A stretch of DNA of 64,000 nucleotides. Source: Erysipelotrichaceae bacterium. Lineage in GTDB: Bacteria > Bacillota_I > Bacilli_A > RFN20 > CAG-826. Position numbers and translations under genes: made by a program. Within the stretch, counting starts at the first letter, position 1, and every line of letters starts with the position of its first letter. Under the pieces are notes generated by a model. It searched no databases and was not told where the DNA came from. It worked only from the letters and a program-made list of their open reading frames with translations. Positions 16,066 through 43,553 of the stretch are shown here, one piece after another. Location of the stretch: the NCBI GenBank assembly GCA_015058945.1, contig SVBF01000007.1:2230-66229 (forward strand). The letters are read 5' to 3'.

Positions 16066-16158
16066 ATAATCGATTCGGTATGTTGTAAAATGCCTGAAGC
16101 GCAATAAAAAAACGATAAATGGCTTTTTTGATGGTCATTTATCGTGCTTTGCCAAGTC

Positions 16159-16235: not shown

Positions 16236-16295
16236 ACGGCTTGATTAATATACGAGCCAAAGGCGGCTAAAGCAAGCGATATTTCCCGATTTGGA

Positions 16296-16817: not shown

Positions 16818-16876
16818 AACGGGATTATCTTACGCGCTTAAGCGCATGTGGCAAAGCACCCAAAGGGGCGTAAAAT

Positions 16877-20227: not shown

Positions 20228-22114
20228 TCATAGTTTTTTGGAGATGGAGACCACGTTTTTGCCGTTGATGCGATGATATGTGATCTCATCCATCAAGCGC
20301 TGCACCATCAGCCAACCGAGTCCACCGACGGGTGCCCCACTTTCGCGTTCGTCCACCCTCTTCTCTTTCACGTCGCGCGGATCGAAGGGGATGCCTTTGT
20401 CGACGATGGTGATCGTGGCGATGCGCGGCTCGGGGCGATAGACGCAACGGAAATGGACGCCTTGGTCGCTCGGGACGTTTCCGTATTTGACGATGTTGGA
20501 GAAGATCTCGTCGATGCAGACGAGGAAATTGTTGAGCACCGGGCCTTTGACGTCGATCGCTTTCGCGCAGTTGGTCATGTATTCCCTTACCGCCGCACCT
20601 TGGGAGAGATCAGCGGCAAACGTCACTTCCTGGGCAAGGACGGCTTCACCGGCATAGGCAACGACGAGATAGGTGATGTCGTCGCTTTGCTCGGCGTCTT
20701 GGGTGAATTCGCCGACAGAGTCTTCTAACTCATGGCCGAACTCGACGATCGACACCGCTTCCCCTTCGCGGTAATTGAGGAATTTGAGGAAGCGTTCCTC
20801 GCCAAAGAATTCACCCTTGGCGTTCTTCGCCTCCGTGATGCCATCGGTATAAAGGATCAAGGCGTCCCCTTCTTTTAGGCGAACCGACTGATCCGTCACG
20901 CAAGCGTCCGGCGTCGAGCCAAGGACGAAGCCACGGGCGCAGTTAAGGGGGATCCATTTGCCTTCTTTTCGATGGACCATCGGCGGGTTATGCCCCGCGT
21001 TAGCGAAGCAAAAATCACCGGTTTCCACGTTGAGGATGCCATAGAAGCAAGTGACGAACATGCTGGATTCGTTGCCTTCGTAAAGGAGCCGATTGACCTT
21101 CTCCATCGTTTGCTTCGGCGAGACGTCCACCCCATAGCAGGCGCGGAAGGACGTGATGGCCTTCATCATGAACATGGCCGCGGGCACGCCTTTGCCGGAG
21201 ACGTCGCCGATGAGGACGCCGAGGTGGGTTTCGTCGAGCCAATGGTAGTCATATAGGTCGCCGCCGACTTCCTTGGCTGGGCGAAGCTGGGCCAATAAGG
21301 AGATCCGTTTGTTCTCGAAAACGGGGGCGGGCAAGGCGGAACGTTGCAGCTCTTCGGCGACGGAAAGCTCCGTGTCGATGCGGGATTTTTCCTTCACGGC
21401 CGAAGACTCGGATTCGAGTAGCCTCTTGGTGCGCACGTTAAGCGCGTTCGAGGCGAAGAAAAGCAACGTGAGGAAAAGCGCCCTGGCGAAATAGTAGTAG
21501 CCGAGTACCGCGAGATATCGGTTCGTCCCCTGCAACAACAACTCGTGAAGGAAAGCGAAGCGGTCCTGTGGGGATTCGGGTTCGAAGACCACCCAAGCGC
21601 CCTGCGCTTCGTCATAAAGGACGCGGCCAGCCGTGAGCAAATTGGGATCGTATTCGCCGACGAACATGCCGGCGTAAAGGCAAATCAGCATCGTGAGTAG
21701 CGTCGATCCGAAGATGATTTTTCCTAAGCGCGGGTTGTAGTAATGGTTCGCCAAAACGATGATGAGGGCGTAGCCGATGATGCCGTGTTTGGGCAAAAGG
21801 ACGTTCGTGCTGCCGATCATCGCGAGAATCGTGAACAGGATGTAGTACTTGAAACCGGCCCGCTCCACCATTTTCGTGCGCCGCCAATAGAGGTTGGAGA
21901 ACAAAAGCGCGGCGACGATCGGAAGATAAATATATACGGGAACGTAGTTATGTAACGGGAAGATGTGGCAGATATAAAGGATCAACGCGATGATGACCGC
22001 GCCACCGGCAAACCCGGAGATGAGGCACATCGCGCGGTTGGCTTCCGTCTCGTTTTTGGCGTATAGCGGGTTGCGTGGGGTGAAGAAGGAGCTAAGCGCC
22101 TTGGGCGTTTTCAT
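20228..22114 (-). CDS. membrane-anchored PP2C (SpoIIE/RsbU-type) phosphatase fused to a C-terminal HATPase_c (RsbW/SpoIIAB-like kinase) domain
   Basis: N-terminal ~6 TM helices, the PPM motif LIGDVSGKGVPAAMFMM, and a C-terminal GHKL ATPase (NFLVCIDEIFSNIVKYG...PVGGLGWLMVQRL); RBS GAGGAG. Confidence 0.75.
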   Translation of the reverse strand: MKTPKALSSFFTPRNPLYAKNETEANRAMCLISGFAGGAVIIALILYICHIFPLHNYVPVYIYLPIVAALLFSNLYWRRTKMVERAGFKYYILFTILAMIGSTNVLLPKHGIIGYALIIVLANHYYNPRLGKIIFGSTLLTMLICLYAGMFVGEYDPNLLTAGRVLYDEAQGAWVVFEPESPQDRFAFLHELLLQGTNRYLAVLGYYYFARALFLTLLFFASNALNVRTKRLLESESSAVKEKSRIDTELSVAEELQRSALPAPVFENKRISLLAQLRPAKEVGGDLYDYHWLDETHLGVLIGDVSGKGVPAAMFMMKAITSFRACYGVDVSPKQTMEKVNRLLYEGNESSMFVTCFYGILNVETGDFCFANAGHNPPMVHRKEGKWIPLNCARGFVLGSTPDACVTDQSVRLKEGDALILYTDGITEAKNAKGEFFGEERFLKFLNYREGEAVSIVEFGHELEDSVGEFTQDAEQSDDITYLVVAYAGEAVLAQEVTFAADLSQGAAVREYMTNCAKAIDVKGPVLNNFLVCIDEIFSNIVKYGNVPSDQGVHFRCVYRPEPRIATITIVDKGIPFDPRDVKEKRVDERESGAPVGGLGWLMVQRLMDEITYHRINGKNVVSISKKL

Positions 22115-23160
22115 ATGTCACTCCTCAAGGAATAGTCGCCTTCATGGATCACCCCGGCCTTACGGAGGATCAAATCGAACAAGAAGACCAAGACGATCGG
22201 GGCGAGGACGCAAATACAGACGATCAGCGTCCACGTGACCCAAGAATCGAAACCGAGGGCCGAGAGGAAATTGATCGGGCCGACGAGTCCGGAAGTACCC
22301 ATGCCCGCGCCGACGGAAAGCGTCGCGGCCATCGCGGAATCGACGCCGTTAAGCGGAAAGAGCATCGCAAAAGGTCCAAGGATCGCCGAAACGACGATTG
22401 TGGGCAGCCAAACGATGGGTCGGCGGACGATGTTCTTGAATTGGAGCATCGATGTGCCTAGCCCCACGGCAAGCACCGCGCCCCACTTGTTGTCCCTAGC
22501 GGTATGGACGGCGAAACCGACCATTTGCACCGAGCATCCGATGAGGGCGCTCGCGGCGGCGAGGGGGACGTTGCCGATGCGGATGGCGACGCAGATCGCC
22601 ACCGAGGAAATCGGGGCGGTGAGGGCCATGCCCATGAGTACGCTAACGATGATGCACATGAGGAAGGGCACCGCGCCAAAGGACACTTCGATGAGTTTGC
22701 CTAAACCAATGGTCACGAAATGGACCCATTCCGCCAAAAGGAAGGAATAGAGCATGGCGGTCAACACCCCCACCAGCGGGATGAGGATCAAATCCACCGG
22801 CGTCTTTCGCACCATCACGTAACGCAAAGTGATCGCGGCGAGGATGACGCTCACATAGCAAGAAAGCGGGTCGCCGATCGAAGCGACGGTCCATTGGGCC
22901 AGACCGAGGTCGGCGTTTTGTATCCAGTGAAAGGCGTAATTGCCTAGGAAGCCCGCGGCCATCAAGGTGACGATGGTGACGCCGTTTCGCTTCAAAGACA
23001 AGCCGACGCCTAAGCCGATGCCGGCGCCCATGAGTCCCTTTAACGCCGACGCCCAAACCGCGATGCCCTCCATATGGGGAATCTTGGCGAAAAGGTCGAC
23101 GATCGTACCGATGATCAAGGTGCCGAAAAGACCGATGGCCATGCCATTGGTCGTCTTCAT
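22111..23160 (-). CDS. polytopic permease (PTS-EIIC-like / unassigned transporter family)
   Basis: About 10 TM helices. Start chosen at MKTTNG with RBS GAGGAAGG; the track start is an upstream GTG. Confidence 0.45.
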   Translation of the reverse strand: MKTTNGMAIGLFGTLIIGTIVDLFAKIPHMEGIAVWASALKGLMGAGIGLGVGLSLKRNGVTIVTLMAAGFLGNYAFHWIQNADLGLAQWTVASIGDPLSCYVSVILAAITLRYVMVRKTPVDLILIPLVGVLTAMLYSFLLAEWVHFVTIGLGKLIEVSFGAVPFLMCIIVSVLMGMALTAPISSVAICVAIRIGNVPLAAASALIGCSVQMVGFAVHTARDNKWGAVLAVGLGTSMLQFKNIVRRPIVWLPTIVVSAILGPFAMLFPLNGVDSAMAATLSVGAGMGTSGLVGPINFLSALGFDSWVTWTLIVCICVLAPIVLVFLFDLILRKAGVIHEGDYSLRSDI

Positions 23161-23225
23161 CAAGTACTCCCGCACCTTCCTCAAAAAAGGAAAACGAGGG
23201 GTTTTTGCAGCCTCATCCATAGAAA

Positions 23226-23585
23226 TTACGCAAAGCACTCCTTGATTAGGGCGACTTCGGCATTAAATTCGTCCACGATGGTTTTCACTTCGTCCTTATG
23301 ATCGGCGATGGCGCCCTCTTGGCAAGAACGCACCTTTTCCGTGAGGTCGACGCAAAGGCCGTAAAGCCTAGACAAAGCGAGGTTTCCGGCGACGCCCTTT
23401 AACGCGTGCACGGCCTCGAAGATGGCTTTTCCATTCCCCGACTCCCCCGCCTCGACGAGCGGGCGGATATCGAAGGTGTCCGCGAACTTCGTCAGGAAGC
23501 GGCGGATTAAGGCGTCGTTCATCAAACGGGTTTTGGCTTCGGCATAATTCCCGCCGACTTTTTCATATAGTTCTTCGATGGTCAT
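23226..23585 (-). CDS. Hpt (histidine phosphotransfer) domain protein
   Basis: Phospho-His context FEAVHALKGVAGNLALS; 119 aa, four-helix-bundle size. Confidence 0.7.
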   Translation of the reverse strand: MTIEELYEKVGGNYAEAKTRLMNDALIRRFLTKFADTFDIRPLVEAGESGNGKAIFEAVHALKGVAGNLALSRLYGLCVDLTEKVRSCQEGAIADHKDEVKTIVDEFNAEVALIKECFA

Positions 23586-25303
23586 GCGGCAAGCTCCTTT
23601 TTGGCTTTGTCAAAGAATTCGTCGCCCGGAATGGGCTTGGAGAAATAGTAGCCTTGGATCAAATCGACCCCATAATCCTTGAGGACTTGGACTTGATCGG
23701 CGTTTTCCACGCCTTCCGCCGTGCTCATTAGGCCCATGGTCTTGCCGATGCCGATGATGCTTTGGACCAAGCGGGCGTTCTTTTCGGACTTGGCCATGCC
23801 ACGGATCAATTGCATGTCGATCTTCATAACGTCCAAAGCCAAATCGCCAAGGATGGTGAGGGAGGAATAACCGGAACCGAAGTCATCAAGTTCAATGCGG
23901 TACCCATCCTCATGGAATTCGTTGACGACGCGGATCAATTCGTCGGCGTTATTGCCGGCCGCGCTTTCGGTGACCTCGAGATGAAGGGTGTCTTTGTCAA
24001 TGCCTTCGTCGGCGATGATCCCATTGAGGAATTCCCTTAGGCCGTGGTCGAAGATCTCGACGCGACTCACGTTGACCGAAATCGGGATCTTTACCCCAAG
24101 TTCGCGGTCCAAGCGCCTTAGCATCGCCGCCACTTTTTGATAGACAAAGCGATCGAGATGGCGAATCAAACCGTTTTCCTCAAACAAGGGAATGAAAACA
24201 CCGGGGCTGATCATCCCAAACTCGGGATGGGCCCAGCGGATGAGCGCTTCCGCCCCCGCTAAGACCGGCTTATCGCCACGGACATCGTATTTCGGCTGAT
24301 AGAAGACTTTGAATTCCTCGTTGCGCAAGGAACGGTCGAACCCCTGCACCAACTTCTCGTTGAAGACGATGCGGTCATGGACGAAACCATCAAAGAAGGC
24401 GATGGACTTGGTACGGTCATGGAGAATGCCGGCATAGGAGTCCTTCGCGTGGTCGATGATGGTATGGAGGTCCAGATTGTGGTCGATGTGGGTATAGACG
24501 CCGAACTTGAGATGGCGACCATCGTCATGGCACGCCTCGCGCACCATCTCGCCAAGCCGTTTCACCAACGGTCCATAATCCTCAATGTGGTCGCAGCACC
24601 AGAAGATCAAATCCTCGTCGCGCCGCGTTCCGATGCCATGGCCAAAGGAAAGAAGCTCCCGGCCGATCGCGTGTTGGATTTGCTCCATGAAGGCGTCGCC
24701 ATAAAGTTCGCGCGTGATGGAATAGTCTGCGATGCGGATGACGACCATGTCCAAATCGGCGTCGCTTTCAAGGCGGGATTTGACGTAATAGTCGAAGTAC
24801 TTGCCGGTATATAGACCAGTGACGTCATCGGTGCTGGTCTGACGGATCATGAGCGCGGACTCGCTTAACTCGATGATGCGCCAAATGCGCGCTCGAATGG
24901 CCTCAGGGGCTTCGTAAGGTTTCTTGATGAAATCGATGGCGCCGCCGTGGAGGCTCTCAATCTCCAACTTGGCCTCGGAGGTCAATACGATGACGGGGAT
25001 ATCCGCGATGGCGGGGATTTCCTTTTGCTTGCGCATGAACGCAAAGCCGTCCATGACGGGCATGACGACGTCGAGCAAAATCAAAGAGACGTCCGCCCCT
25101 TCTTCGGAAAGGACTTTCAACGCCTCTTCGCCGTTGCCGGCCAAAAGGAGGTCATAATCCTCTTCTAGGAACGAAGAAAGAATCTCGCGGTTGAGCTCCT
25201 CGTCCTCGACGATGAGGATCTTGCGCCTTTTGTTCTTGTCCAAGGAAAAATCGAATTTCACGGATTTGATTTTATCATGTGCGCGAAAGGGCGCACGCAC
25301 CAA
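23582..25303 (-). CDS. response regulator with REC, degenerate GGDEF-like and EAL domains (c-di-GMP phosphodiesterase)
   Basis: REC domain (KILIVEDEE...LLDVVMPVMDG), EAL signature (EALIRWAHPEFGMISPGVFIP...) and no intact GGDEF motif. GTG start with RBS GAGGCG. Confidence 0.75.
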   Translation of the reverse strand: MVRAPFRAHDKIKSVKFDFSLDKNKRRKILIVEDEELNREILSSFLEEDYDLLLAGNGEEALKVLSEEGADVSLILLDVVMPVMDGFAFMRKQKEIPAIADIPVIVLTSEAKLEIESLHGGAIDFIKKPYEAPEAIRARIWRIIELSESALMIRQTSTDDVTGLYTGKYFDYYVKSRLESDADLDMVVIRIADYSITRELYGDAFMEQIQHAIGRELLSFGHGIGTRRDEDLIFWCCDHIEDYGPLVKRLGEMVREACHDDGRHLKFGVYTHIDHNLDLHTIIDHAKDSYAGILHDRTKSIAFFDGFVHDRIVFNEKLVQGFDRSLRNEEFKVFYQPKYDVRGDKPVLAGAEALIRWAHPEFGMISPGVFIPLFEENGLIRHLDRFVYQKVAAMLRRLDRELGVKIPISVNVSRVEIFDHGLREFLNGIIADEGIDKDTLHLEVTESAAGNNADELIRVVNEFHEDGYRIELDDFGSGYSSLTILGDLALDVMKIDMQLIRGMAKSEKNARLVQSIIGIGKTMGLMSTAEGVENADQVQVLKDYGVDLIQGYYFSKPIPGDEFFDKAKKELAA

Positions 25304-26602: not shown

Positions 26603-26929
26603 TTAAAGCGATCCTTCGTAGTCGGCGATATCGCGGGAATACATGAAGCCTTTGATGTCGTGGAAATTGTTCGTATAGCCACGGATGACCTGTTTGACCA
26701 AGGCCACTTTCTCATCCGGCAAGACGAAAAGGCAAAGAATGCTCTCGAGCATCTCCTCCTTTTCCAGGTGGCGCAAAGTGAAGAAATGGTGTTCCTCGGG
26801 GTAATAGTCCACCGCGTGGCGCAGCGACTCGGCGGAGAGGACCGTGGCGTTGTAGCCTTCGGCCTTGAGTTCCTCGAGCGTGCGGTAGGCCGCGGGGGAG
26901 CTTTTTAACATTAAATAGAGTTCTTTCAT
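26603..26929 (-). CDS. small P-II-like (GlnB-fold) protein, possible regulator of the adjacent antiporter
   Basis: 108 aa with beta-alpha-beta periodicity (MKELYLMLKS...GYNATVLSAES). Its stop abuts the antiporter start. Confidence 0.3.
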   Translation of the reverse strand: MKELYLMLKSSPAAYRTLEELKAEGYNATVLSAESLRHAVDYYPEEHHFFTLRHLEKEEMLESILCLFVLPDEKVALVKQVIRGYTNNFHDIKGFMYSRDIADYEGSL

Positions 26930-26979
26930 GGATGACCTCGTCGCTATTCTATACCCCTTCGCAAGCGTGAGCGAAAAAA

Positions 26980-27489
26980 CTATATCTTTTTCTCAAAGGC
27001 TAAGCGTGGTGCGTCGTCTTGGGGAACATGGACGATGCCGCGATAGACGAATCCCAAGGTCTCCATTAAGTGACGCATGGGCGCGTTGTCTTCATGTGTG
27101 TCCATGCGTAGCACCGGGCATCGAGACAACGCGAATTCGCTCGCGAAGGCGAGCATCCCTTTCCTTTTGCCGGAACTCGCGATGCGGTGGATGACGCCAT
27201 AATTCGCATCGATGTCCCACTCCCCCTGCTCGATATGGTCGTAACAGGGGTCGGCGTGTGGGCCGTGCATAAAGCAAAACGTGGCCAGGATTTCCTCGTC
27301 ATCGACGATGACGTAACTACGGCCGATCTCGATGTCTTTCTCAATCAGGTCTTGGGGAGGCCACCCATATTCACTCCATTGATGGGTGTTGCCGTAGGAA
27401 ACCATGAATTCCCTGGCGTGGCCGAAGATGGCCATAATGACGGGTAGGTCTTTCCATTCGCTCTTACGGACTTGCACGTCAACAATCAT
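26980..27489 (-). CDS. GNAT-family N-acetyltransferase
   Basis: Acetyl-CoA-binding region RIASSGKRKGMLAFASEFAL (Q/RxxGxG/A-like); start at MIVDVQ. Confidence 0.6.
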   Translation of the reverse strand: MIVDVQVRKSEWKDLPVIMAIFGHAREFMVSYGNTHQWSEYGWPPQDLIEKDIEIGRSYVIVDDEEILATFCFMHGPHADPCYDHIEQGEWDIDANYGVIHRIASSGKRKGMLAFASEFALSRCPVLRMDTHEDNAPMRHLMETLGFVYRGIVHVPQDDAPRLAFEKKI

Positions 27490-27504
27490 AACGAAGCGCG
27501 GGAT

Positions 27505-27535
27505 TAAGAAAAGGGCCGCCCCGAGGGAACGGCCC
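27505..27535 (-). terminator. intrinsic terminator after lipoprotein gene 27556-28071
   Basis: GGGCCGTTCCCTCGGGGCGGCCC hairpin followed by UUUUCUU on the minus strand. Confidence 0.45.
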
Positions 27536-27555
27536 AAATTTTCACTAATCGCGAA

Positions 27556-28071
27556 TTACTTGGTCCAGGTGAAGGTGGCGGTGGCGACGACGGTGATCTT
27601 GTAGACCTCGCTCTCAGAAACCGCCATTTCGAGGTTCATGGTGGTCTTGGATTCAACGACGTAGCCATTGTCATCGGTCTTGGCGTAGGTCTCGTGGTTG
27701 ACTTTCTGGCCGAGGACTTCTTGCGCTTCGGTGTAGGTGAACTCAAGGGCTTTGCCGTTGGCTTTGAACTTGGCGGCGTCTTCGGGAATCGCCTCGATCA
27801 CCGCGGCACTGACGCGGTTTTCGACGATCTCGGAGCCTTCGAAGTGCTGGGTCTGCTCCCCATCCTTGTACCCCTCTCTTATTTCGGCGGGGACGTTGTC
27901 GCTGAAGGTGGCTTTGCTGACCAACTTTCCATCACCGGACTTATAGACGACGTTGGCGGTGTCGTAGCCTTTGGCCATTTCGACGGCCTGGGCTTTGGTG
28001 ATGTCCTTCGCGCCGCAAGAAGCGAGAAGGGTCACAGCAGCAAGAGCGAGAACGGTTTTGCTGAGTCTCAT
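27556..28071 (-). CDS. lipoprotein, unknown function
   Basis: MRLSKTVLALAAVTLLASCG lipobox; RBS AAGGAG. Confidence 0.55.
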   Translation of the reverse strand: MRLSKTVLALAAVTLLASCGAKDITKAQAVEMAKGYDTANVVYKSGDGKLVSKATFSDNVPAEIREGYKDGEQTQHFEGSEIVENRVSAAVIEAIPEDAAKFKANGKALEFTYTEAQEVLGQKVNHETYAKTDDNGYVVESKTTMNLEMAVSESEVYKITVVATATFTWTK

Positions 28072-28204
28072 AGTTTTTTCTCCTTGCCGCCTCATTGCGA
28101 GTGCGGACTTTTATTAAAAATATTGTTAATAAATTGCCGGTCTTTTCAAGCCTTTTTCCCACAAGTGTACGAAGAAATAGGCACTTGTTATGCATTTTTT
28201 GTAG

Positions 28205-28231
28205 AACAAAAACCCTCTCATTTCGAGAGGG
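28205..28231 (-). terminator. intrinsic terminator after the reductase gene
   Basis: CCCTCTCGAAATGAGAGGG hairpin followed by UUUUUG on the minus strand. Confidence 0.45.
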
Positions 28232-28253
28232 CTGATGTTCAACGGGTCAACGG

Positions 28254-29429
28254 TTAGGCGATGTTGATTTTGATCTTGATATCGCTTAAGGGGTAGGTCG
28301 CGCAACTATGGACGTAGTTGAAGTCGATGTCGGCGTGACGGCGTCCGTCTCCGTTAGGGCAGACGAAGTATTCGCCCTGCAGCACCTTGACGCGGCAGAA
28401 GCCGCAGGCACCGGAACGGCAGGCGGTGTGGATCTTAAGCCCGGCACGCTCCAACGCGACGGCGAGAGGCTCGGTCGCTTTGGCGGGGATGACGGTCTCG
28501 TGGATGCCCTGCACGACGGTGAGGTTGAAGGTCTTGTCCGCCTTGTCTTTGGGGAATCCCTCAAAGACGGTGATGTCGCGGGCTTGTCCGAAGACTTCGA
28601 AACGGATGCGCCTCTCGGGGACTTTCAAGGCACTAAGCTCCTTGCGGACGAAGTCGTACATCACCTGCGGGCCGCAGACGAAGTAGGTCGTGTCCTCCGC
28701 GGAGTACTTCTTGATGAGCTCCGCGTTAAGGAAGCCCTTCTCCCCTTTCCACTTGGGGTTATCGCCGGAGAGGACATGGACGACGTGGACTTTTTCGCAG
28801 ACGCACTTATCGAGTTCCTCGCGGAGGATGATGTCCTTCTCGTCGACGGAACCGAAGAGGATCGTGAGGTCCATGTCGAGTTTGCCGAAGCGGATTTCCT
28901 TCGCCATGGAGACGAAGGGCGTGATGCCCGAACCGCCGGCCAAGGCCACGACGTGTTTGGCGTCGCGGATGTAATCGTAATGGAACTCACCAAGGCCGAC
29001 TTCGCCTTCGAATTCGTCGCCGACTTTGACGTTATCGTAGAGATAGTCCGCGACGAAGCCGTTGGCGCGGGGCTTGCGCACCGTGATCTCGACGATCGGG
29101 TTCTCGCCACGGGTCTGATACGGGGCGGAACTGATCGAATAGGGACGGGTCACGAGCGAATCGCCGATCTTGAGGCGAAGCGTGAGGAATTGTCCGGCGC
29201 GGAAGTAGGGAAGCTTCGGCGCGGAGAAAGTGATGGTGCGGGCGGTAGGCGAAGCGTCTTTGACCTCGGTCACCTTCAAAGTGAGGAAACCGGGGTGGAG
29301 CGCTTTGGCCACGGCGCCGATCGGATCGAAGGGCGCGGGTTTAGAAGAAGCCTGATCGTAGACTTCCTGGCGACGCTTGGTGACGCGCGAGGCGCCGCCG
29401 ACGTCTTTGAGGAATCCTTTGACTTTCAT
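28254..29429 (-). CDS. FAD/NAD(P)-binding ferredoxin-reductase-type oxidoreductase with C-terminal 2Fe-2S ferredoxin domain
   Basis: FNR-family flavin site RPYSISSAP, NAD-binding ALAGGSGITP, and plant-type 2Fe-2S cysteines CRSGACGFC...C; RBS AAGGAGG. Confidence 0.75.
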   Translation of the reverse strand: MKVKGFLKDVGGASRVTKRRQEVYDQASSKPAPFDPIGAVAKALHPGFLTLKVTEVKDASPTARTITFSAPKLPYFRAGQFLTLRLKIGDSLVTRPYSISSAPYQTRGENPIVEITVRKPRANGFVADYLYDNVKVGDEFEGEVGLGEFHYDYIRDAKHVVALAGGSGITPFVSMAKEIRFGKLDMDLTILFGSVDEKDIILREELDKCVCEKVHVVHVLSGDNPKWKGEKGFLNAELIKKYSAEDTTYFVCGPQVMYDFVRKELSALKVPERRIRFEVFGQARDITVFEGFPKDKADKTFNLTVVQGIHETVIPAKATEPLAVALERAGLKIHTACRSGACGFCRVKVLQGEYFVCPNGDGRRHADIDFNYVHSCATYPLSDIKIKINIA

Positions 29430-29430
29430 C

Positions 29431-31011
29431 TTATTTGCCCTCCTTTTCGTCTTCTTCCATCATGTCGAGGATGATCTTGGCGCCCTTGCGGCCGTTGGTG
29501 ACCGCGGGGCCCATGCCATCGCCGGAGATCTGGTGGGCGCCGGCGAAGGAAAGACCCTGAATGTAGTTTTCTTTCTCGCTCATCTGAAGCCTGGCGACGA
29601 TATGGTCGTCCATCGTGTGCATGTAGCCATAGATGGAGCCTTGGTAGGCGCCGGTGTAATGGGAGATGGTCGGCGGGGCTTCGACGATGAGTTCGAGGAT
29701 GTGGTCGCGAAGGCTGACGCCAAGACGCTTCGACTCGAGGTCGATGAAGTGGTTCGCGTTCTTGAGCTTGAGTTCCTCGTAGTTCTCCTCGGTGACGCCG
29801 AACCAACCCTCGGGACGCGGGAGCATGGTGATGGAGTAAATGCAGGTGCCTTTGGGCGAAGCCTCCGGGTTTGCGAGGTTGGTGCAGATCGAGGTGACGT
29901 AGTTATACGGTCCGGAAGTCGAGGCCTCTTTCCAGATGCGGTCGAGGTCCATGCCTTCCGCGGCATAGAAGGTCGAATAGTCCTTGATGCCGAGTTCCTC
30001 GGGGCTCTTGTCGAGGAGCATGACGACGGAGAAGCAAGTGACGCCGATTGTCTTGGCGTTGACGAACTTGATCGCGCCTTCGGGCACGGCCTCTTTGGGC
30101 TCGATCATCTGGGTGTAGGCCTTGTCCGGATAGCTGGAGCAGACGACGTAGCGCGCCTTGATTTCCTGCCCCTGGGCGGTGCGGACGCCTTCGACGTGGC
30201 CGTTTTTGACGAGGATTTTGTCCACGCGCTGGCCGAATTCGACCTGGGCGCCCATCTTGATCGCGGCTTCCGCCATCTTGAGGGACATCTCGTGGGAGAA
30301 CTTCCGCGGGACGTAGGAGCCATAGCCGAGGTAATCGGCCATGAGGACGGCCCAGACGGTGAAGGGGAGGTTCTCGAGGACGTCGCCGACGTAGATCCAA
30401 TAGGCGGCGAGGATGTCGACCGCCTCTTGGGGCAAGTCGAAGGTGTCGATGACCTCTTTGGCGCTATAGCCGGCGGTCTTGACGAATTCGGGATGCTTCA
30501 AAAGCATCTGTACTTTCGACATGTGGGTGACCGAGAGGATGTTGACCGAGTTATAGACGGTGTTGCAGAGGTTCAGCAAACGGAGGATCTTCTCATAGAG
30601 CTTGCCGTCTTTGTCGCCGCAGGCGTCCGCGATTTCCTTCGCGGGGGTCTCGAAGTTGCCGTGGTCGCCCGGATGGACGACGACGTCGGTTCCCTTGACG
30701 CCGTCGACGAAGCGATAGGCGTCTGGGACGCGGAGCCATTCGATGTCCACGCCCATCTCGTCGAAGAATTTGCGGATCTTAAGTGGGCATTCCTTCGGGC
30801 CGATGGACATCATCTCGTGGAGGGTGCCCTCGATCTCGATGCCACGACGGACGAAGGAGGTCGCGACGCCGCCGGGGAGGTTATGCTGCTCCAAGACGAG
30901 CACCTTCTTCCCCTTTTTGGCCAAGGTTAGGGCCGAGGCGAGGCCGGCTAAGGCGCCGCCGATGACGATAACGTCATACCTTTCATCAAAGTATTTGGGG
31001 TTTTCTGCCAT
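29431..31011 (-). CDS. phytoene-desaturase (CrtI) family FAD-dependent oxidoreductase
   Basis: Dinucleotide fold DVIVIGGALAGLASA and CrtI-like C-terminus GLSFAGAHQISGDGMGPAVTNGRKGA; starts 2 nt after the downstream reductase gene. Confidence 0.7.
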   Translation of the reverse strand: MAENPKYFDERYDVIVIGGALAGLASALTLAKKGKKVLVLEQHNLPGGVATSFVRRGIEIEGTLHEMMSIGPKECPLKIRKFFDEMGVDIEWLRVPDAYRFVDGVKGTDVVVHPGDHGNFETPAKEIADACGDKDGKLYEKILRLLNLCNTVYNSVNILSVTHMSKVQMLLKHPEFVKTAGYSAKEVIDTFDLPQEAVDILAAYWIYVGDVLENLPFTVWAVLMADYLGYGSYVPRKFSHEMSLKMAEAAIKMGAQVEFGQRVDKILVKNGHVEGVRTAQGQEIKARYVVCSSYPDKAYTQMIEPKEAVPEGAIKFVNAKTIGVTCFSVVMLLDKSPEELGIKDYSTFYAAEGMDLDRIWKEASTSGPYNYVTSICTNLANPEASPKGTCIYSITMLPRPEGWFGVTEENYEELKLKNANHFIDLESKRLGVSLRDHILELIVEAPPTISHYTGAYQGSIYGYMHTMDDHIVARLQMSEKENYIQGLSFAGAHQISGDGMGPAVTNGRKGAKIILDMMEEDEKEGK

Positions 31012-31027
31012 ATTCGCAGTCCTTTCT

Positions 31028-31059
31028 TAAGAAAGTCAAAGGGGATAGCGAGTATCCCC
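31028..31059 (-). terminator. intrinsic terminator / attenuator between the two flavoenzyme genes
   Basis: GGGGATACTCGCTATCCCC hairpin followed by UUUGACUUUCUU on the minus strand. Confidence 0.4.
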
Positions 31060-31078
31060 TTGATCGTATTGACGTGGA

Positions 31079-32503
31079 TTAGAAGAAGCGTTCGACGAGG
31101 TCGTGGGAGTATTCCACGGTTTCGTCCATGTCGCCGAAGGACATGATTTCGCCGGCGTAGTAGGTGTTGTTCTCACCCTGCATCGCCTCGACCTTCTCGT
31201 ACCAGCCGTTGGCGTAGTCCTCGGAGAAGACGTGCGGGAAGTAATAGGCCTGGAATTCGTAGATGATCTTGTCCTTGCCCTCTTCCTTGATCGGCGCGAT
31301 GCCGAGCTTGTTGAGGTCTTCGAGGACGGTCTTCTTGGTGGCCTCGTAATCGAGTTCGGGGCGAGCCTTGTACTGCTCGACGGTCTCCTTCTCGTCTTTG
31401 TGCTTACGGAGGACGTAGGAGACGAGCGGTTGATCGGGTTCATTGCCCCAGCGCATGTAGAAGACCATGCCGTGGCCGAGGGTCTCGGGGGTCATGTTGT
31501 CGACGACGTAGAAGGAGGCTTCCGGATAGTTCTCGGGCGCGGTGATGTAAGCCATCGTGTCGTAACGCTCGTAGTCGATCTTGGAGAAGAGTTCCCTCTC
31601 TTTGTCGGTGACGTCGAGGTAGGTGTCGAGGCCTTTGGCGACCGGGTTATTGATCTCGCCGACCTGAAGCGGGGCGGTGATGATGAGCTTGTCGAACTCC
31701 TCTTCTTTGCCGTTAACGGTGATGACCACCTTCTTGCCACGGACGATCTTGGTGATGTTGGAGTTGAGCAAGGCGGGGTGTTTGAGCTTGGCGTTGCAGG
31801 CCTCGTAGATGGATTGCGTGCCATCCTTCCAGGTCCAGAGGTTGACGTTGACGAAGTTCATCATGGTCTGGAAGTCGAGGTATTTCAGGACATAGGCGGC
31901 GGGGATTTCGTCGAAATAGCCGTAGCCGAAGGAGGTGAAGGGCTGGACCCAGATTTCCTGAACCAGCGGGACGCCGTTCATCTCGACGAACTTCTTGAAC
32001 GGAAGCGCGAGGTCCTTGAGGTTGGGGTTCTCACCCTTGACCGGTTCGCGACCCGGGGTGACCGCAAAGCCTTCATAACGGCCTTCGGAGACGCCGAGGT
32101 GGCCGCAGATGTCATAGCCTTTGTACTTGGTTTCGAGGATTTCGCCGAACTTCTTGATTTGCTTCTTGAGCTTGAGGAGGTGCGGGATGTTGAAGAGCTT
32201 CTTGTCAAAGCGATGGTCGACGCGGCCGTTGGGGAGGCGGTAGGTACGATGGAGGCGCGGTCCGTTATGGTCGACGCCACCGAAAAGCTCGACGTCATGG
32301 ACGGCGTAATAGGAAGGAACGCCCATGATGGCGCCCATCTCGTAACGCTTGCCGTTGTGGGTCGGCGAATGGCATTTGCCGCCGACGTGATCCGTCTTTT
32401 CGTAAATGACGTAGTTTTCGTACCCCTTCTTTTCAAGGTACATACCGGCGCTTAAACCAGCCGGGCCACCACCGATGATGGCGATGCGAATATTTTTTTC
32501 CAT
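31079..32503 (-). CDS. amine-oxidase/protoporphyrinogen-oxidase-like FAD-dependent oxidoreductase
   Basis: GxGxxG Rossmann IAIIGGGPAGLSAG; ~475 aa. Start placed at MEKNIRI; the N-terminal 64 aa of the track ORF are rejected. Confidence 0.6.
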   Translation of the reverse strand: MEKNIRIAIIGGGPAGLSAGMYLEKKGYENYVIYEKTDHVGGKCHSPTHNGKRYEMGAIMGVPSYYAVHDVELFGGVDHNGPRLHRTYRLPNGRVDHRFDKKLFNIPHLLKLKKQIKKFGEILETKYKGYDICGHLGVSEGRYEGFAVTPGREPVKGENPNLKDLALPFKKFVEMNGVPLVQEIWVQPFTSFGYGYFDEIPAAYVLKYLDFQTMMNFVNVNLWTWKDGTQSIYEACNAKLKHPALLNSNITKIVRGKKVVITVNGKEEEFDKLIITAPLQVGEINNPVAKGLDTYLDVTDKERELFSKIDYERYDTMAYITAPENYPEASFYVVDNMTPETLGHGMVFYMRWGNEPDQPLVSYVLRKHKDEKETVEQYKARPELDYEATKKTVLEDLNKLGIAPIKEEGKDKIIYEFQAYYFPHVFSEDYANGWYEKVEAMQGENNTYYAGEIMSFGDMDETVEYSHDLVERFF

Positions 32504-32587
32504 TATTCTTCCTTTCATGATCCTGGAAAATTGGTACAAATATTCTAGCGTTTGACCTAATATTTTTAAATAGGTAGACAAAAATCT

Positions 32588-33907
32588 ATGCCACGTTTCG
32601 CTTCGTTCCAGTCGATGCTTGAGTCGGTGGACCCAAGTCGCGTCTGTTTGGAATATGCCTCTTCCGGAGGCAAGAGTATTTTGACTTATGGTCAAGTGCT
32701 TGAGCAGATTAGGAATTATCCCCTACCTAGTGAGCATAGCGTCGGCGTTTTCGCCACCACTACCCCCGCCTCAATCGTCGCGTTGCTCGCGCTCATTGGG
32801 AAAAGGCGCGTCGTCTTGCTTAACCCCGAGGACAACGAGGGGGCTTTGGCGTTACAAATCGCCTCCGCTCACGTCGACCGTCTCCTCGGCGATGACGATG
32901 AACTCATCGCCTCTCTCACCCCACATCTTTATCATGGAAAACACGACGAGGATAACGATGTCCTTTTCTTCACTTCCGGCACCACCTCCAAAGCTAAGGC
33001 GGTCCAGTTAACCGAATCCTCGCTTTGCTCCGCCGCGTTTAACGGTGGTTCCTTGCTGCCTTTGTCCCCCGAGGACTCGATGCTTTGTTGCTTGCCTTTA
33101 TCCCATGTCTTCGGCTTCGTCTGTTCCTTCCTTTGGCCCCTAAGTTTCGGGGCGAAGATCTGTTTGGGTCGCGGGTTAAGAAGCATTTTCTTTGACTTCG
33201 ATTTCTATCGCCCCACCGTGGCTTCTCTCGTCCCCCAGATGGCGGGTTTCTTGGCCGCGAAACGTCTTTTTAACCCTGAGCTGAAACTGATCCTCATCGG
33301 GGCTGGCGATTGTCCCGACGCCATCCTTAGCCTAATCAAATCGCTCGGCATCCGCGTCAGTTTCGGCTATGGTCTAACCGAGTCGAGTTCCGGCATCGCG
33401 CTTTCTTTGGGAGACGATCCACGCGCGATGACGATCTGCCCCGATTATGAGGTGCATCTTGCGGATGATGGCGAGATCCTCGTCAAAAGCGAGACCACGT
33501 TGATGAAGGGCTATTACCTCGACCCGGAACACACGCGAGCCACGCTTAAGGACGGGTATCTCCATACCGGCGACTTAGGCAAAATCGTTGACGGCAAACT
33601 CTTCATCACCGGGAGAAAGAAAGAGATTCTTGTCTTCAACGACGGCAGCAAGCTCTTCCTTCCCGAATTCGAGCAGGAACTCGCCACGCGTCTAGGACCC
33701 GAAAGCGACTTCGCCTTGGTCCAGCGCAAAGACGGCACCGTCGCCCTCTACATATATCGGCCCGTCAACGTGGAGTCCATCGTCGATGAGTGGAACAAAG
33801 GTCTGTCTCTCTCCCACCGCGTCAACAAAATCGTCTACGCCCCCTCACCCCTGCCCCGCACCAAGACCAACAAAGTCCAACGCTATCTCATACCGACCAT
33901 CGAATAA
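32588..33907 (+). CDS. AMP-dependent synthetase/ligase (short adenylate-forming enzyme, acyl-ACP/acyl-CoA synthetase-like)
   Basis: AMP-binding motif FFTSGTTSKAKAV and core II YGLTESSSG; 439 aa. Confidence 0.75.
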   Translation: MPRFASFQSMLESVDPSRVCLEYASSGGKSILTYGQVLEQIRNYPLPSEHSVGVFATTTPASIVALLALIGKRRVVLLNPEDNEGALALQIASAHVDRLLGDDDELIASLTPHLYHGKHDEDNDVLFFTSGTTSKAKAVQLTESSLCSAAFNGGSLLPLSPEDSMLCCLPLSHVFGFVCSFLWPLSFGAKICLGRGLRSIFFDFDFYRPTVASLVPQMAGFLAAKRLFNPELKLILIGAGDCPDAILSLIKSLGIRVSFGYGLTESSSGIALSLGDDPRAMTICPDYEVHLADDGEILVKSETTLMKGYYLDPEHTRATLKDGYLHTGDLGKIVDGKLFITGRKKEILVFNDGSKLFLPEFEQELATRLGPESDFALVQRKDGTVALYIYRPVNVESIVDEWNKGLSLSHRVNKIVYAPSPLPRTKTNKVQRYLIPTIE

Positions 33908-33918
33908 GGAGTATTGAT

Positions 33919-34170
33919 ATGGAACGGAAAGAAATCGCAAAACAGGTCGTCGACCTCATCCGCGCGAACATGCCCGGATTCGAGAACATGGAAGTCGACG
34001 AGAACTCCCGCATCAACACCGAGCAGGGATTCGACTCCATGACCTTCGTCTACATCATGTGCAAAATCGAATCCATGTACGAGATTTCCATCCCCAAGAG
34101 GAAATGGGAGAAGATGGTTACCCTCGGCGATGTCCTTGACGCCATCGAGAAGGAGCTCGCCAAGAAATAA
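33919..34170 (+). CDS. acyl carrier protein (phosphopantetheine-binding)
   Basis: 83 aa with GFDSMTFV (DS* attachment-site motif); RBS AAGGAG. Confidence 0.7.
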   Translation: MERKEIAKQVVDLIRANMPGFENMEVDENSRINTEQGFDSMTFVYIMCKIESMYEISIPKRKWEKMVTLGDVLDAIEKELAKK

Positions 34171-34877
34171 TGGCCGGACCCATTTTCGTCAAAACCCTCA
34201 AACTCCGCGCAGAACACGTGGATTTTCGTCGCAAAATGCGTCCTTCCGTCTTGATGCGCCTCTTTCAGGAATGCTGCATCGCCCATACGGAAGAACTCGG
34301 CATGGGACGGAAGATGACCCTCGACCGCGGCTTTCTTTGGGTCATCACTTCCGAGCGCATCCAAATCGAGCGCATGCCTGAGTATGACGAAGAAATCACC
34401 CTGGAATGCTACCCTGGCCCGATGCTGCATTATTTCTTCCCGCGCAACCTCGTGGTCAAAGACGCGCAGGGTTCTACCCTCATCAAAGGCAACGCCATGT
34501 GGGCCCTCATCGATGAGAAGAGTCGCGCGATGATCGATCCCAAGGAACACGGCATCCACGTCGAAGGGCAAGACCTTCCCGGCCAGATCGCCCCGGCGAT
34601 GATGATTCCCACCCCCGCCCTATCTTTGGTCGCCAAAACCGAGGCGTCCTACTCGCTCGTGGACATAAACGGTCATCTCAACAACTGCTCCTACCTCGAC
34701 ATCGCGATGGATCTTTTTGACAAAGAAGACTTGTCCCGCGACATTACGGAAATCGCCCTCGTCTTTAAAAAAGAAATCCCGTTAGGCGAATCGTTCGACA
34801 TCTCCTATGGCAAAGAAAAAGAGGCGTATTACTTCGCCTCCAAAGACCGATTCTCGTTGAAGATATCCCTCCGTTAG
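34170..34877 (+). CDS. acyl-[acyl-carrier-protein] thioesterase (FatA/B-like hotdog)
   Basis: 235 aa. N-terminal pattern VDFRRKMRPSVLMRLFQECCIAHTEELG and C-terminal INGHLNNCSYLD are typical of bacterial acyl-ACP thioesterases. The start overlaps the ACP stop (TAATG). Confidence 0.65.
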   Translation: MAGPIFVKTLKLRAEHVDFRRKMRPSVLMRLFQECCIAHTEELGMGRKMTLDRGFLWVITSERIQIERMPEYDEEITLECYPGPMLHYFFPRNLVVKDAQGSTLIKGNAMWALIDEKSRAMIDPKEHGIHVEGQDLPGQIAPAMMIPTPALSLVAKTEASYSLVDINGHLNNCSYLDIAMDLFDKEDLSRDITEIALVFKKEIPLGESFDISYGKEKEAYYFASKDRFSLKISLR

Positions 34878-34906
34878 CCGATGCGTCAATCCGCGTCGGT
34901 TTTTTC
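34878..34906 (+). terminator. intrinsic terminator after thioesterase gene
   Basis: CCGATGCGTCAATCCGCGTCGG hairpin followed by TTTTTTC. Confidence 0.5.
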
Positions 34907-41547: not shown

Positions 41548-42141
41548 CTAAGAAGCAAAAGCCCCATCAACATTCGTTCTTGTGACTTTGATGTTGTAGA
41601 TGAGCGCGAGGGTCACCGACATCACAAGGGGCACGAAAATAGAAAGGTACATCGAGAAATACGCGAACCAACTCTGGGTGATGTTGCCTAAGAAAGAGAC
41701 GTTCGCGTTGATCGCCGAATAAATGGAGAACGTGGCCGCGGTCGAGACCATCGCCAAACAGGCAATGAAGGTGAAGCGACGGTCATGCTGGCGGAGCAAG
41801 AAAGCGATGACGGAAGCAAAGAGCAAACATAGGGTCGCGATTTGGAACGTCGACCTTTGGGGCAAAAGGATGTTGACGAAGACGGCGCCCGCGAAAGGGA
41901 TTATCGCCAAATAGTAGGCCACCTCCCCCTTGCGGTAGCCAATCGCGAAATATAAGAGGAAGGCGAGGGTCGAGATGGTGATTTGGATGTAAGAAGCGAT
42001 CATCCATCCACCCAAGTTATGCACGATGACGAACGTGAGCAGATAGACCGAGACGATGAGCAAAAGAAGGGTTAGCGCGATCTGAATGCCCAAGAAGACG
42101 ATCTTTGGTATCTTGATTCCGAGTTTTTCGACGAGTCCCAT
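41548..42141 (-). CDS. polytopic membrane protein, unknown function
   Basis: Six hydrophobic segments; 197 aa. Confidence 0.45.
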   Translation of the reverse strand: MGLVEKLGIKIPKIVFLGIQIALTLLLLIVSVYLLTFVIVHNLGGWMIASYIQITISTLAFLLYFAIGYRKGEVAYYLAIIPFAGAVFVNILLPQRSTFQIATLCLLFASVIAFLLRQHDRRFTFIACLAMVSTAATFSIYSAINANVSFLGNITQSWFAYFSMYLSIFVPLVMSVTLALIYNIKVTRTNVDGAFAS

Positions 42142-42259
42142 TTTCGTTACCCAATCCGTGGTTTATGGGAATTTTACCCTCCTCCGGTTCACATCGCCAT
42201 CTCTTCGATGCCAATTTCGTTTCACCTCGTATAATAGGTGTGAAATGAGGTACGTTTCT

Positions 42260-42691
42260 ATGAAAAAGCTTGGAATAATCGCCCTTTGTTCCCTTTCCGC
42301 CATCGCGATCGGACTATCGTCATGGTCGCTGGCCCGTTCGTTTATGCCCGAGAAGCGCGACGTCGAATACGCGATGTATGTCGGCACCAACGACAAGGAG
42401 ACCTATCAACTCGAAATTCCTATCGAAGAAGCGAGGGACATCGTCCATAACACATTGATGGACCATTTCCCCAACGGTTTCACCATGTATGAAGCCAAAG
42501 GCGTCTGGCGCGACGAAAAGAACGTCGTCACCTTGGAATACACCTTCGTCTGTATCTTGGAACACGTCGAACGCGCGGAAGTATATAAGACCGCCGACGA
42601 ACTTTTGGTCGCGTTAAACCAAAGCACGATCCTCGTCGTCGAAAGCCTCGCCAGCGCGGTCACGTTCTATCAAGGAAGCGGCGTGAACTAG
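42260..42691 (+). CDS. membrane-anchored/exported protein, unknown function
   Basis: N-terminal signal anchor MKKLGIIALCSLSAIAIG; 143 aa. Start set at the first ATG after a TATAAT promoter-like box. Confidence 0.45.
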   Translation: MKKLGIIALCSLSAIAIGLSSWSLARSFMPEKRDVEYAMYVGTNDKETYQLEIPIEEARDIVHNTLMDHFPNGFTMYEAKGVWRDEKNVVTLEYTFVCILEHVERAEVYKTADELLVALNQSTILVVESLASAVTFYQGSGVN

Positions 42692-42701
42692 ATTCTCCGA
42701 C

Positions 42702-43553
42702 ATGAAAGAAAAGCTAACCCTTTTTCAGCGGCGTGAACGGATCTATGGGGCGATCTTTGGCAAAAAGCCAAAGAGGAATCCCTTTAATTTCGAGATCCAC
42801 CTCAACGATGGGTGCAACCTTTTCTGCAAGGGTTGTTTCCATTTCGCCCCGCTCGCCCATGGGGTATCCCCCTACCCCCTCGACGAATTCGAGGCGGACA
42901 TGAAGCGGATTTGCGAGCTCTTTAGAGGCAAGTTCGGCTGGGTCCATCTGCTCGGTGGAGAGCCTCTGCTCAATAAGGACATCACCCAATACCTCGACAT
43001 CGTCGGACGTTATGTCAAAAGGGGGCAAGTCGACCTCATCACCAACGGCTTGTTGATTCCAAAGATGGGCGAGGACTTCTTCGAAAGCTGCAAGAAAAAC
43101 CGGATTCGCCTCGCCATCAGCAGGTATCCCCTACCCTTCGATTACGATGCGGTCCTGAGATCGGTCCTCGACCATGGCTGCGAAGCCTATATCTTCGGCG
43201 ATCGGACCCAATCGGACGCCTTTAATCTGCCTGCTTTAAACAAAGACTCTACCGCCTCGGCCAAGCATAATTACCTTCATTGCGTCATCGCTAACGCCTG
43301 CGTCACCTTAGACCACGGCAGAATCACCTATTGCTCCATCCCCGGCTACGTCCGCCTTTATAACGAGGCTTTTGGTCAAACCTTCGACGCCACCGACGAT
43401 TGGATCGGCATCCATAACCATACCAAGAAGGAAATCCTCGATTTTCTACGCACCCCCCATTCCTTCTGCCGATACTGCGACTTAAAGAAACGCCTGGAGC
43501 ACCCCATCCCTTGGTCCCCGAGTGAAAAGAAAAAAGAAGAATGGTTGTCCTAA
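42702..43553 (+). CDS. radical SAM protein with C-terminal Cys-rich (twitch/SPASM-like) region
   Basis: CxxxCxxC motif NDGCNLFCKGCFHF and C-terminal cysteines (HCVIANACVT...YC...FCRYC); 283 aa. Confidence 0.7.
   Translation: MKEKLTLFQRRERIYGAIFGKKPKRNPFNFEIHLNDGCNLFCKGCFHFAPLAHGVSPYPLDEFEADMKRICELFRGKFGWVHLLGGEPLLNKDITQYLDIVGRYVKRGQVDLITNGLLIPKMGEDFFESCKKNRIRLAISRYPLPFDYDAVLRSVLDHGCEAYIFGDRTQSDAFNLPALNKDSTASAKHNYLHCVIANACVTLDHGRITYCSIPGYVRLYNEAFGQTFDATDDWIGIHNHTKKEILDFLRTPHSFCRYCDLKKRLEHPIPWSPSEKKKEEWLS

Follow-up and report, generated by a model that had tools for sequence, protein, structure and literature searches.

After 60 years, the enzymes of fatty acid biohydrogenation and the organisms that host them are still poorly resolved (PMC13464031; reviews to August 2026). 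The polyunsaturated fatty acid isomerase (PAI) of Cutibacterium acnes converts free linoleate to the trans-10,cis-12 form of conjugated linoleic acid (CLA) (PMC13365329 and PMC2885616). C. acnes is the only cultured trans-10 producer, and it is unlikely to be the only or the main one in vivo (PMC7339423). For the saturation of polyunsaturated fatty acids (PUFA), a system consisting of CLA-HY, CLA-DH, CLA-DC, and CLA-ER has been reported in Lactobacillus plantarum (Kishino 2013, as cited in PMC10019597). To the best of our knowledge and literature searches, it is the only genetically defined bacterial system of this kind. In addition, Butyrivibrio fibrisolvens possesses a cis-9,trans-11-octadecadienoate (CLA) reductase (Hughes 1982; Fukuda 2007), which is membrane-associated but not integral and which is found in no family database (Hackmann and Firkins, PMC4478896). 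In this study, a six-gene locus from an Erysipelotrichaceae bacterium was compared with these systems. The locus lies at positions 28254–34877 of a stretch of 64,000 nucleotides, hereafter the window (GenBank assembly GCA_015058945.1, contig SVBF01000007.1, positions 2,230 to 66,229). It comprises two divergent operons. One encodes a PAI-like flavoenzyme, a CrtI-like flavoenzyme, and a reductase on the minus strand, and the other encodes a ligase, a putative acyl carrier protein (ACP), and a thioesterase on the plus strand. Judging from the sequence, we estimate a probability of roughly 55% that the locus is a detoxifying module for the biohydrogenation of linoleate and linolenate in an uncultured rumen bacterium of the Erysipelotrichaceae.

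Homology of the PAI-like protein to C. acnes PAI

The gene at 31079–32503 (−) encodes a protein of 474 aa with the first residues MEKNIRIAIIGGGPAGL, which the initial annotation had described as amine-oxidase-like. The open reading frame (ORF) extends to 32695, and the start at 32503 was set by the public gene call and the position of the FAD motif. In the phmmer search, the protein matched the solved C. acnes PAI (PDB 2B9W) over its full length (query 2–473 on chain 5–423) with an E-value of 7.8e-119 and 401 bits, and 219 of the 414 aligned positions were identical (53%). The FAD motif GxGxxG was kept (IIGGGPAGL). Moreover, R88, F168, and F193 of PAI aligned to identical residues in the HMMER alignment. 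In the 2006 work of Liavonchanka on PAI, these residues are said to bind the substrate carboxylate and to gate the channel.

On this evidence, the protein is a full-length homolog of the C. acnes isomerase, and a FAD-dependent shift of a double bond to give a conjugated diene would be expected of it. The guess of PAI-type fatty acid double-bond chemistry made in the initial annotation was borne out by this homology. Compared with C. acnes PAI, the protein was about 50 residues longer and carried several insertions, the largest of which was about 26 aa at query 136–161. Furthermore, PAI was studied as a stand-alone enzyme, whereas the gene here is part of a conserved six-gene module. PAI homologs in rumen metagenome-assembled genomes (MAGs) were already noted earlier, and thus the presence of the isomerase there is not new. 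Its place in a conserved cluster with the present set of enzymes, by contrast, was found in no searchable paper on bacterial fatty acid biohydrogenation.

Conservation and distribution of the six genes

A degenerate-pattern scan with one genome per species gave 576 confirmed relatives of the CrtI-like protein. Among the best 80 of these 576, at least 57 had record titles that were explicitly those of ruminant-gut MAGs (RGIG, RUG, RUI, Tb.RUG, ruminal_MAG). The hosts of the same 80 were Bacilli/Erysipelotrichaceae at 75–91% identity, Oscillospiraceae, Lachnospiraceae, and other Clostridia at about 60%, as well as Sphaerochaetaceae and Acholeplasmatales. Across rumen MAGs, the CrtI-like homologs were 55–91% identical. 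Since the hits came almost exclusively from ruminant-gut genomes, the distribution points to rumen biohydrogenation specifically.

To determine the co-conservation of the module, 81 independent loci were searched by tblastn with the six proteins of the window. The reductase directly followed the CrtI-like gene in 74 of 74 evaluable loci, and the PAI-like gene was present in 65 of 72. The ligase, ACP, and thioesterase genes were found in 51 of the 53 loci containing the PAI-like gene, and in none of the seven loci without it (0/7). Nearly all loci had the same gene order, in which the thioesterase, ACP, and ligase genes share a strand and the PAI-like, CrtI-like, and reductase genes lie on the other; three loci were rearranged. 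The divergent spacer between the ligase and PAI-like genes was 69–316 bp in all 47 loci in which it was measured. The arrangement is far beyond chance, because it recurred in dozens of genomes. Co-conservation had been set beforehand as the point on which the initial annotation could fail, and the six genes proved to be strongly co-conserved over the 81 loci.

Seven loci (L011, L012, L017, L019, L027, L054, and L083) possessed the CrtI-like/reductase pair only, and the PAI-like gene and the ligase-ACP-thioesterase genes were gained or lost together. Therefore, the module consists of an invariant redox core and an accessory arm for isomerization and acyl handling. The flavoproteins were conserved at 59–92% across orders, with medians of 61–63%, and the medians for ligase, ACP, and thioesterase were 38–45%. 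The flanks of the cluster differed even among the closest relatives.

In the MAG of Pseudobutyrivibrio sp. UBA3626 (L027), the CrtI-like gene, the reductase, and an IsrA-like gene (described below) lay between two copies of one DDE transposase (8367–9875, − and 15981–17444, −), and this trio was accompanied by neither the PAI-like gene nor the ligase-ACP-thioesterase genes. Such a composite-transposon-like arrangement fits mobility of the module. In addition, the rumen anaerobic fungus Anaeromyces robustus (GCA_002104895.1, MCFG01000271.1; L087:10001–11431) had a PAI-like protein 79% identical to that of the window, and no other cluster gene was called within 10 kb of it on this contig. The fungal gene looks like a product of bacterium-to-fungus horizontal transfer inside the rumen. 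The conserved flavoproteins against differing flanks, the transposase bracketing, and the fungal copy argue for horizontal spread within the rumen habitat.

The CrtI-like flavoenzyme and its reductase

The CrtI-like gene (29431–31011, −) encodes a protein of 526 aa with Amino_oxidase/DAO hits. It scored 80.9 bits against TIGR02734 (crtI_fam), below the cutoff of 238.1, and the scores against the carotenoid isomerase model and CrtD were 77.9 bits (cutoff 586.9) and 76.7 bits (cutoff 580), respectively. The AF2/AlphaFold model, built with 40 homologs, had a pLDDT of 88.2. In Foldseek, the top solved match of the model was the gamma-carotenoid desaturase 4REP (E 4e-28, TM 0.77/0.82, 18% identity). 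The CrtI structure 4DGK was also matched, and amine oxidases came next, near TM 0.6. According to the model and the scores, the protein is a three-domain flavoenzyme of CrtI fold which stands outside the curated carotenoid families.

With the CrtI/CRTISO/RetSat family the protein shares the fold and the N-terminal FAD Rossmann motif, and it matches the HMMs of crtI_fam, carotenoid isomerase, and CrtD weakly but over the full length. It differs from this family in that its scores were 3- to 8-fold under the cutoffs and its identity to solved members was only 13–18%. Moreover, its gene had no carotenoid neighbors and was always accompanied by a partner of the FNR-[2Fe-2S] type, and its hosts are strict rumen anaerobes. 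A carotenoid pathway was rejected, owing to the lack of a synthase and to scores far below the family cutoffs. For phytoene, diapophytoene, and squalene synthases, no SQS_PSY Pfam hit was obtained in about 26 neighboring ORFs of the window (16877–45046). Likewise, no phytoene or squalene synthase occurred among the neighbors of locus L001 or among the conserved neighbor families of 83 related loci. This agrees with the initial annotation, which had noted the lack of a phytoene or diapophytoene synthase. Its alternative of isoprenoid modification, by contrast, found no support. In that case, the CrtI-like enzyme would saturate or isomerize isoprenoid acids of plants, such as phytol/phytenic acid or carotenoid fragments. 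The CrtI-family fold would suit such a role, and the restriction to the rumen also fits substrates derived from chlorophyll or phytol. However, the isomerase is closely homologous to PAI, whose chemistry requires a 1,4-pentadiene, and this is missing in phytol. Furthermore, neither prenyl nor phytoene synthases were found in the flanks or in the 83 loci, the thioesterase is of the fatty acyl-ACP type, and the CrtI-like protein is far under the carotenoid cutoffs. We therefore consider a function in isoprenoid metabolism very improbable.

The reductase gene (28254–29429, −) encodes 391 aa with the Pfam domains FAD_binding_6, NAD_binding_1, and Fer2, and a four-Cys motif C-x4-C-x2-C-x30-C was read in the translation. 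Its PDB relatives were 1KRH and 2PIA. The best NCBIfam scores were 140 bits for PaaE (cutoff 420.8), 134 bits for GbcB (cutoff 500), and 131 bits for the Hcr-type NF007964 (cutoff 383). The protein is thus classified, from its domains and motifs, as an FNR-type reductase whose C-terminal domain is a plant-type [2Fe-2S] ferredoxin. It has the layout of PaaE, Hcr, and phthalate dioxygenase reductase, and appears to be an ortholog of no named member (PaaE, Hcr, GbcB, or BenC). An architecture of NAD(P)H, FAD, and [2Fe-2S] sites is that of one-electron donor proteins. The reductase is proposed to be the electron donor to the CrtI-like flavoenzyme, which in turn is proposed to be a C=C reductase (saturase) for conjugated fatty acid dienes.

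We infer saturation by the CrtI-like enzyme only because its reductase partner is invariant. A reductive role is suggested by the translational coupling of this electron-donor partner, and also by the strict anaerobiosis of the hosts, in which a desaturation would find no acceptor. Moreover, the CRTISO/RetSat branch of the CrtI fold uses reduced FAD and acts on conjugated polyenes, and the rumen is known to hydrogenate the PAI product onward to trans-10 18:1. Both facts argue in the same direction.

It might also be that the module isomerizes only. The PAI-like enzyme would then supply a conjugated diene, the CrtI-like enzyme would be a CRTISO-like cis/trans or positional isomerase, the reductase would keep its FAD reduced, and other CLA or trans isomers would be formed with no net hydrogenation. 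Consistent with this, the scores on the carotenoid isomerase model (77.9) and crtI_fam (80.9) were nearly equal, and relatives of the protein carry the JGI label "prolycopene isomerase". CRTISO is known to need reduced FAD without net redox change, and many relatives add an IsrA-like Fe-S flavoprotein where reductive power might be needed. Nevertheless, a coupled NAD(P)H reductase in 74 of 74 loci exceeds the need for occasional re-reduction of a flavin. The module in the lineage of the window has no other reductive gene, and hydrogenation dominates the chemistry of the rumen. Pure isomerization therefore seems to us rather doubtful.

The ligase, ACP, and thioesterase

The ligase (32588–33907, +, 439 aa) scored 106.5 bits against Pfam AMP-binding, for which the threshold is 29.9. 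The core motifs TSGTTSKAK, GYGLTE, TGD, and GRKKE and the C-terminal Lys were read in the translation. Its best NCBIfam and PDB relatives were MenE, FadD13, and oxalate-CoA ligase, and no named equivalog reached its cutoff. The enzyme is predicted to be a short adenylate-forming member of the ANL family, and we propose that it is a fatty acid:ACP ligase. The putative ACP (33919–34170, +, 83 aa) has its serine in the motif GFDSM. It scored 17.3 bits against Pfam PP-binding, under the gathering score of 20.8, with the DSM serine present. It was also matched by 13 NCBIfam ACP models with E-values of 9e-10 to 1e-6, all under the cutoffs. The ACP was kept between ligase and thioesterase in 53 loci at 38–83% identity. 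The thioesterase (34170–34877, +, 235 aa) contained both the N- and C-terminal Acyl-ACP_TE domains (PF01643/PF20791), with 72.9 bits for Acyl-ACP_TE (threshold 23.7) and 31.5 bits for Acyl-ACP_TE_C (threshold 21). Its PDB relatives were the bacterial acyl-ACP thioesterases 2ESS (E 4e-16), 4GAK, and 2OWN, and the motif NGHLNN was read in the translation. From these matches, it is assigned as a two-domain acyl-ACP thioesterase of the FatA/B type.

The simplest reading of the three genes is a reduction tethered to the ACP, because a co-transcribed ligase, ACP, and thioesterase would otherwise run a futile cycle. The initial annotation was right in its general direction, double-bond chemistry on exogenous fatty acids and not on carotenoids, and it had proposed that activation onto the ACP is followed by isomerization or saturation and then by release. 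At least the isomerase step may instead precede the loading of the ACP, since the characterized PAI uses free fatty acids and the carboxylate-binding Arg is kept in the present protein. These observations bear also on another possibility, the salvage of fatty acids or remodeling of the membrane. In that case, the flavoenzymes would act earlier, on the free acids, the ligase and private ACP would feed the "tamed" exogenous acids to phospholipids, and the thioesterase would edit. The translational coupling of ligase, ACP, and thioesterase and their travel with the PAI-like gene are in agreement with this, as are the use of free acids by the PAI family and the conserved Arg. In Firmicutes, ACPs dedicated to exogenous fatty acids occur, such as AcpB of Enterococcus. 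Hosts among the Acholeplasmatales and Erysipelotrichaceae, moreover, often need external lipids. However, no acyltransferase (PlsX/Y/C) was linked to the cluster in any of the 83 loci, and a thioesterase co-transcribed with the ligase opposes net incorporation. Salvage differs from the preferred detoxifying biohydrogenation only in the role of these three genes. It is possible, though we regard it as unlikely.

The logic of ligase, ACP, and thioesterase further resembles starter-unit cassettes. The module might accordingly provide a building block for a specialized lipid or natural product, with a starter acid loaded on the ACP, desaturated or conjugated, and released. Against this, no ketosynthase, nonribosomal peptide synthetase/polyketide synthase, or tailoring genes were found in the 83 loci. 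For a desaturation of the CrtI type, an obvious electron acceptor is lacking in strict anaerobes, and the NAD(P)H-dependent FNR partner points to reduction. In addition, the distribution tracked the rumen habitat across phyla rather than a producer lineage. Such a function is highly unlikely.

An IsrA-like protein in relatives of the locus

The flanking ORFs of the 83 loci were clustered all-against-all. A single further family was widely conserved, namely a 939-aa Fe-S flavoprotein in 46 of the 83 loci, usually right after the reductase (for instance, L037:12721–15540 (+), L027:12728–15544, and L008:8052–10820). This protein was absent from the 64-kb window and from its closest relatives. IsrA (VUZ27132.1) is a putative reductase of isoprene, a conjugated diene, from Acetobacterium wieringae, where it occurs with HypA/HypB, and its authors proposed that IsrA homologs hydrogenate unfunctionalized conjugated C=C bonds (PMC10134865). 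The 939-aa protein is likened to IsrA by the published description, not by sequence alignment. In both, the N-terminal domain is without annotation and carries two CxC motifs, which are spaced by 75 residues in the 939-aa protein and by 74 in IsrA. Further shared features are canonical 4Fe-4S motifs, located around residue 324 and at the C-terminal end, a FAD/NAD(P)H domain resembling GltD/NfnB, and the vicinity of HypB. HypB was close to the cluster in 15 loci (e.g., L053:5287–5958, −).

The IsrA-like protein may be a second, or even the main, reductase of the pathway where it is present. Its association with the cluster in relatives reinforces the theme of C=C hydrogenation. Such a link would also connect the biohydrogenation of fatty acids with the anaerobic reduction of isoprene.

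Proposed pathway and comparison with known biohydrogenation systems

In the proposed mechanism, free C18 polyunsaturated fatty acids from feed lipids would be taken up and then biohydrogenated, probably for detoxification. The PAI-like enzyme would act on free linoleate or linolenate and turn the methylene-interrupted cis-9,cis-12 diene into a conjugated one, as the strong homology of the enzyme suggests. By analogy with C. acnes PAI, the product is probably trans-10,cis-12. The CrtI-fold enzyme would then saturate one bond of the conjugated diene to give trans-10 18:1, a step suggested by gene linkage and fold. The electrons for this step would come from NAD(P)H and reach the FAD of the CrtI-like enzyme by way of its translationally coupled FNR-[2Fe-2S] partner. 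Acyl handling is the least certain part of the scheme. The conjugated acid might be thioesterified to the ACP, reduced in the protein-bound state, and released by the thioesterase. Alternatively, the product might be routed to lipid synthesis, and the thioesterase would then act as a release valve.

A stronger version of this proposal can be advanced only tentatively, and we hold it to be more doubtful than the general assignment. It states that the CrtI-fold flavoprotein and its private FNR-ferredoxin constitute a new class of fatty acid C=C reductase, a "CLA reductase". Its substrate would be tethered by the ligase to the dedicated ACP and set free by the thioesterase. Uncultured Erysipelotrichaceae, Oscillospiraceae, Lachnospiraceae, and other groups would carry the genes and exchange them horizontally. 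If this were true, the reduction of fatty acid dienes would be a new type of reaction for the CrtI family.

Several points weigh against the assignment as a biohydrogenation module. To our knowledge, fatty acid reduction is known for no enzyme of the CrtI family, and the role of the CrtI-like enzyme could be an isomerization that needs only reduced flavin. In loci with the IsrA-like protein, the diene might be reduced by this protein instead of the CrtI-like enzyme, and the CrtI-like/reductase pair would then be left without an assigned role. An identity of 53% to PAI does not guarantee the product isomer, which may be trans-10,cis-12, cis-9,trans-11, or others. As for the acyl-handling genes, the ACP scores beneath curated thresholds. 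PAI uses free acids, so that an ACP-tethered route is not required for isomerization, and a ligase and thioesterase with no intervening step would make a futile cycle. Moreover, the ligase-ACP-thioesterase genes are tied to the PAI-like gene and not to the CrtI-like/reductase core, which should temper confidence in either reading of acyl handling. Finally, no regulator, lipase, or transporter was linked to the cluster.

The detoxifying conversion proposed here resembles the Lactobacillus CLA-HY/DH/DC/ER system, in which several enzymes lead linoleate through conjugated intermediates to monoenes and are thought to detoxify free PUFA. However, none of the six proteins had a Pfam or NCBIfam hit to the families of that system (the hydratase MCRA, an SDR protein, an acetoacetate-decarboxylase-like isomerase, and an enone reductase). 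The cluster contains no hydroxy/oxo route, and the Lactobacillus system contains no ACP module.

The B. fibrisolvens CLA reductase, linked to NADH, converts a conjugated C18 diene to a trans monoene, which is the same type of reaction as that proposed for the CrtI-like enzyme. CrtI-type enzymes are likewise membrane-associated (PMC3382138). Furthermore, the Pseudobutyrivibrio MAG L027 possesses the CrtI-like/reductase pair and no PAI-like gene. That the CrtI-like protein corresponds to the B. fibrisolvens enzyme is speculation.

No searchable paper was found to report a conserved cluster of PAI with a CrtI-fold enzyme, an FNR-ferredoxin reductase, ligase-ACP-thioesterase genes, and, in many genomes, an IsrA-like protein, and the literature searches gave no link of this cluster's families to biohydrogenation beyond that of PAI. 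The cluster offers concrete genes to express, assay, and track, and makes a long-standing applied and mechanistic question testable. It would support markers for quantitative PCR or metatranscriptomics and possible targets for inhibitors, and it names uncultured lineages as carriers.

Operon structure and surroundings of the locus

The Pfam and NCBIfam hits agreed with the initial annotation on the six genes, their domain content, and their positions. The gene junctions that it had described were likewise found in the DNA. The TAA stop codon of the CrtI-like gene is followed after one base by the ATG of the reductase, and in the sequence TAATG the stop codon of the ACP gene overlaps the start codon of the thioesterase gene. 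The ACP starts 11 nt past the ligase stop, and a GGAG lies between this stop and the ACP ATG. All six are considered genuine genes. Since domain hits and conserved homologs were obtained only in the listed frames, the long opposite-strand ORFs are shadows. Three of the window proteins are public as MBE6126589–91 from an uncultured Erysipelotrichaceae MAG, annotated as generic oxidoreductases only. The sequence was also found on a 585-kb ENA metagenome contig.

Terminator-like hairpins with T-runs were found at the ends of both operons. That of the isomerase/CrtI-like/reductase operon (28211–28233, −) lies about 20 nt past the reductase stop; 5 of the 10 bp in its stem are GC pairs, and its tail reads TTTTGTT. 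The hairpin of the ligase/ACP/thioesterase operon (34876–34901, +) begins at the thioesterase stop codon; here 6 of the 10 bp in the stem are GC pairs, and the tail reads TTTTTCTT. Because these hairpins directly follow the reductase and thioesterase stops, 28254–34877 are taken as the natural limits of the module. A further hairpin (31039–31061, −), with a 9-bp stem and a weak T-run, lies within the 67 nt that separate the PAI-like gene from the CrtI-like gene. It is possibly an attenuator or a processing site, which could tune the ratio of isomerase to reductase transcripts. The divergent intergenic region (32504–32587) is 84 bp long and AT-rich and contains promoter-like hexamers; it presumably serves the two operons as a bidirectional promoter. 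An alignment of eight close relatives showed only AT-richness in this region and no conserved operator. Rfam and tRNA scans of the window gave nothing within the cluster.

Three small ORFs downstream of the reductase (26603–28095, −) and the HD-GYP gene after the thioesterase were rejected as members of the module. Their Pfam hits were absent or unrelated, no tblastn match to them was found in the 83 related loci, and terminators lie between them and the module. The flanks in the window were unrelated to lipid metabolism and encoded SpoIIE/HATPase, PTS EIIC-like, Hpt, response regulator-EAL (RR-EAL), Na+/H+ exchanger, HD-GYP, and MatE proteins. Two further genes at 42086–43553 (+), the first for a DUF3574 protein and the second for a small radical-SAM protein, had no link to the cluster.

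At 5239–5316 (−), a group II intron (domain V/VI) was matched in Rfam with 49.4 bits, which exceeds the gathering score. The neighbors of this match were a C1-like peptidase, an ORF without hits, and FeoB, and no ORF for a reverse transcriptase lay nearby. The intron is possibly ORF-less or degenerate. Furthermore, a run of overlapping signaling genes occupied 20228–25303 (−), comprising RR-EAL (23582–25303), Hpt (23226–23585), a membrane protein of the PTS_EIIC_2 family (22111–23238), and a SpoIIE phosphatase fused to a HATPase_c_2 kinase domain (20228–22114). This combination is unusual, and the genes are apparently co-transcribed.

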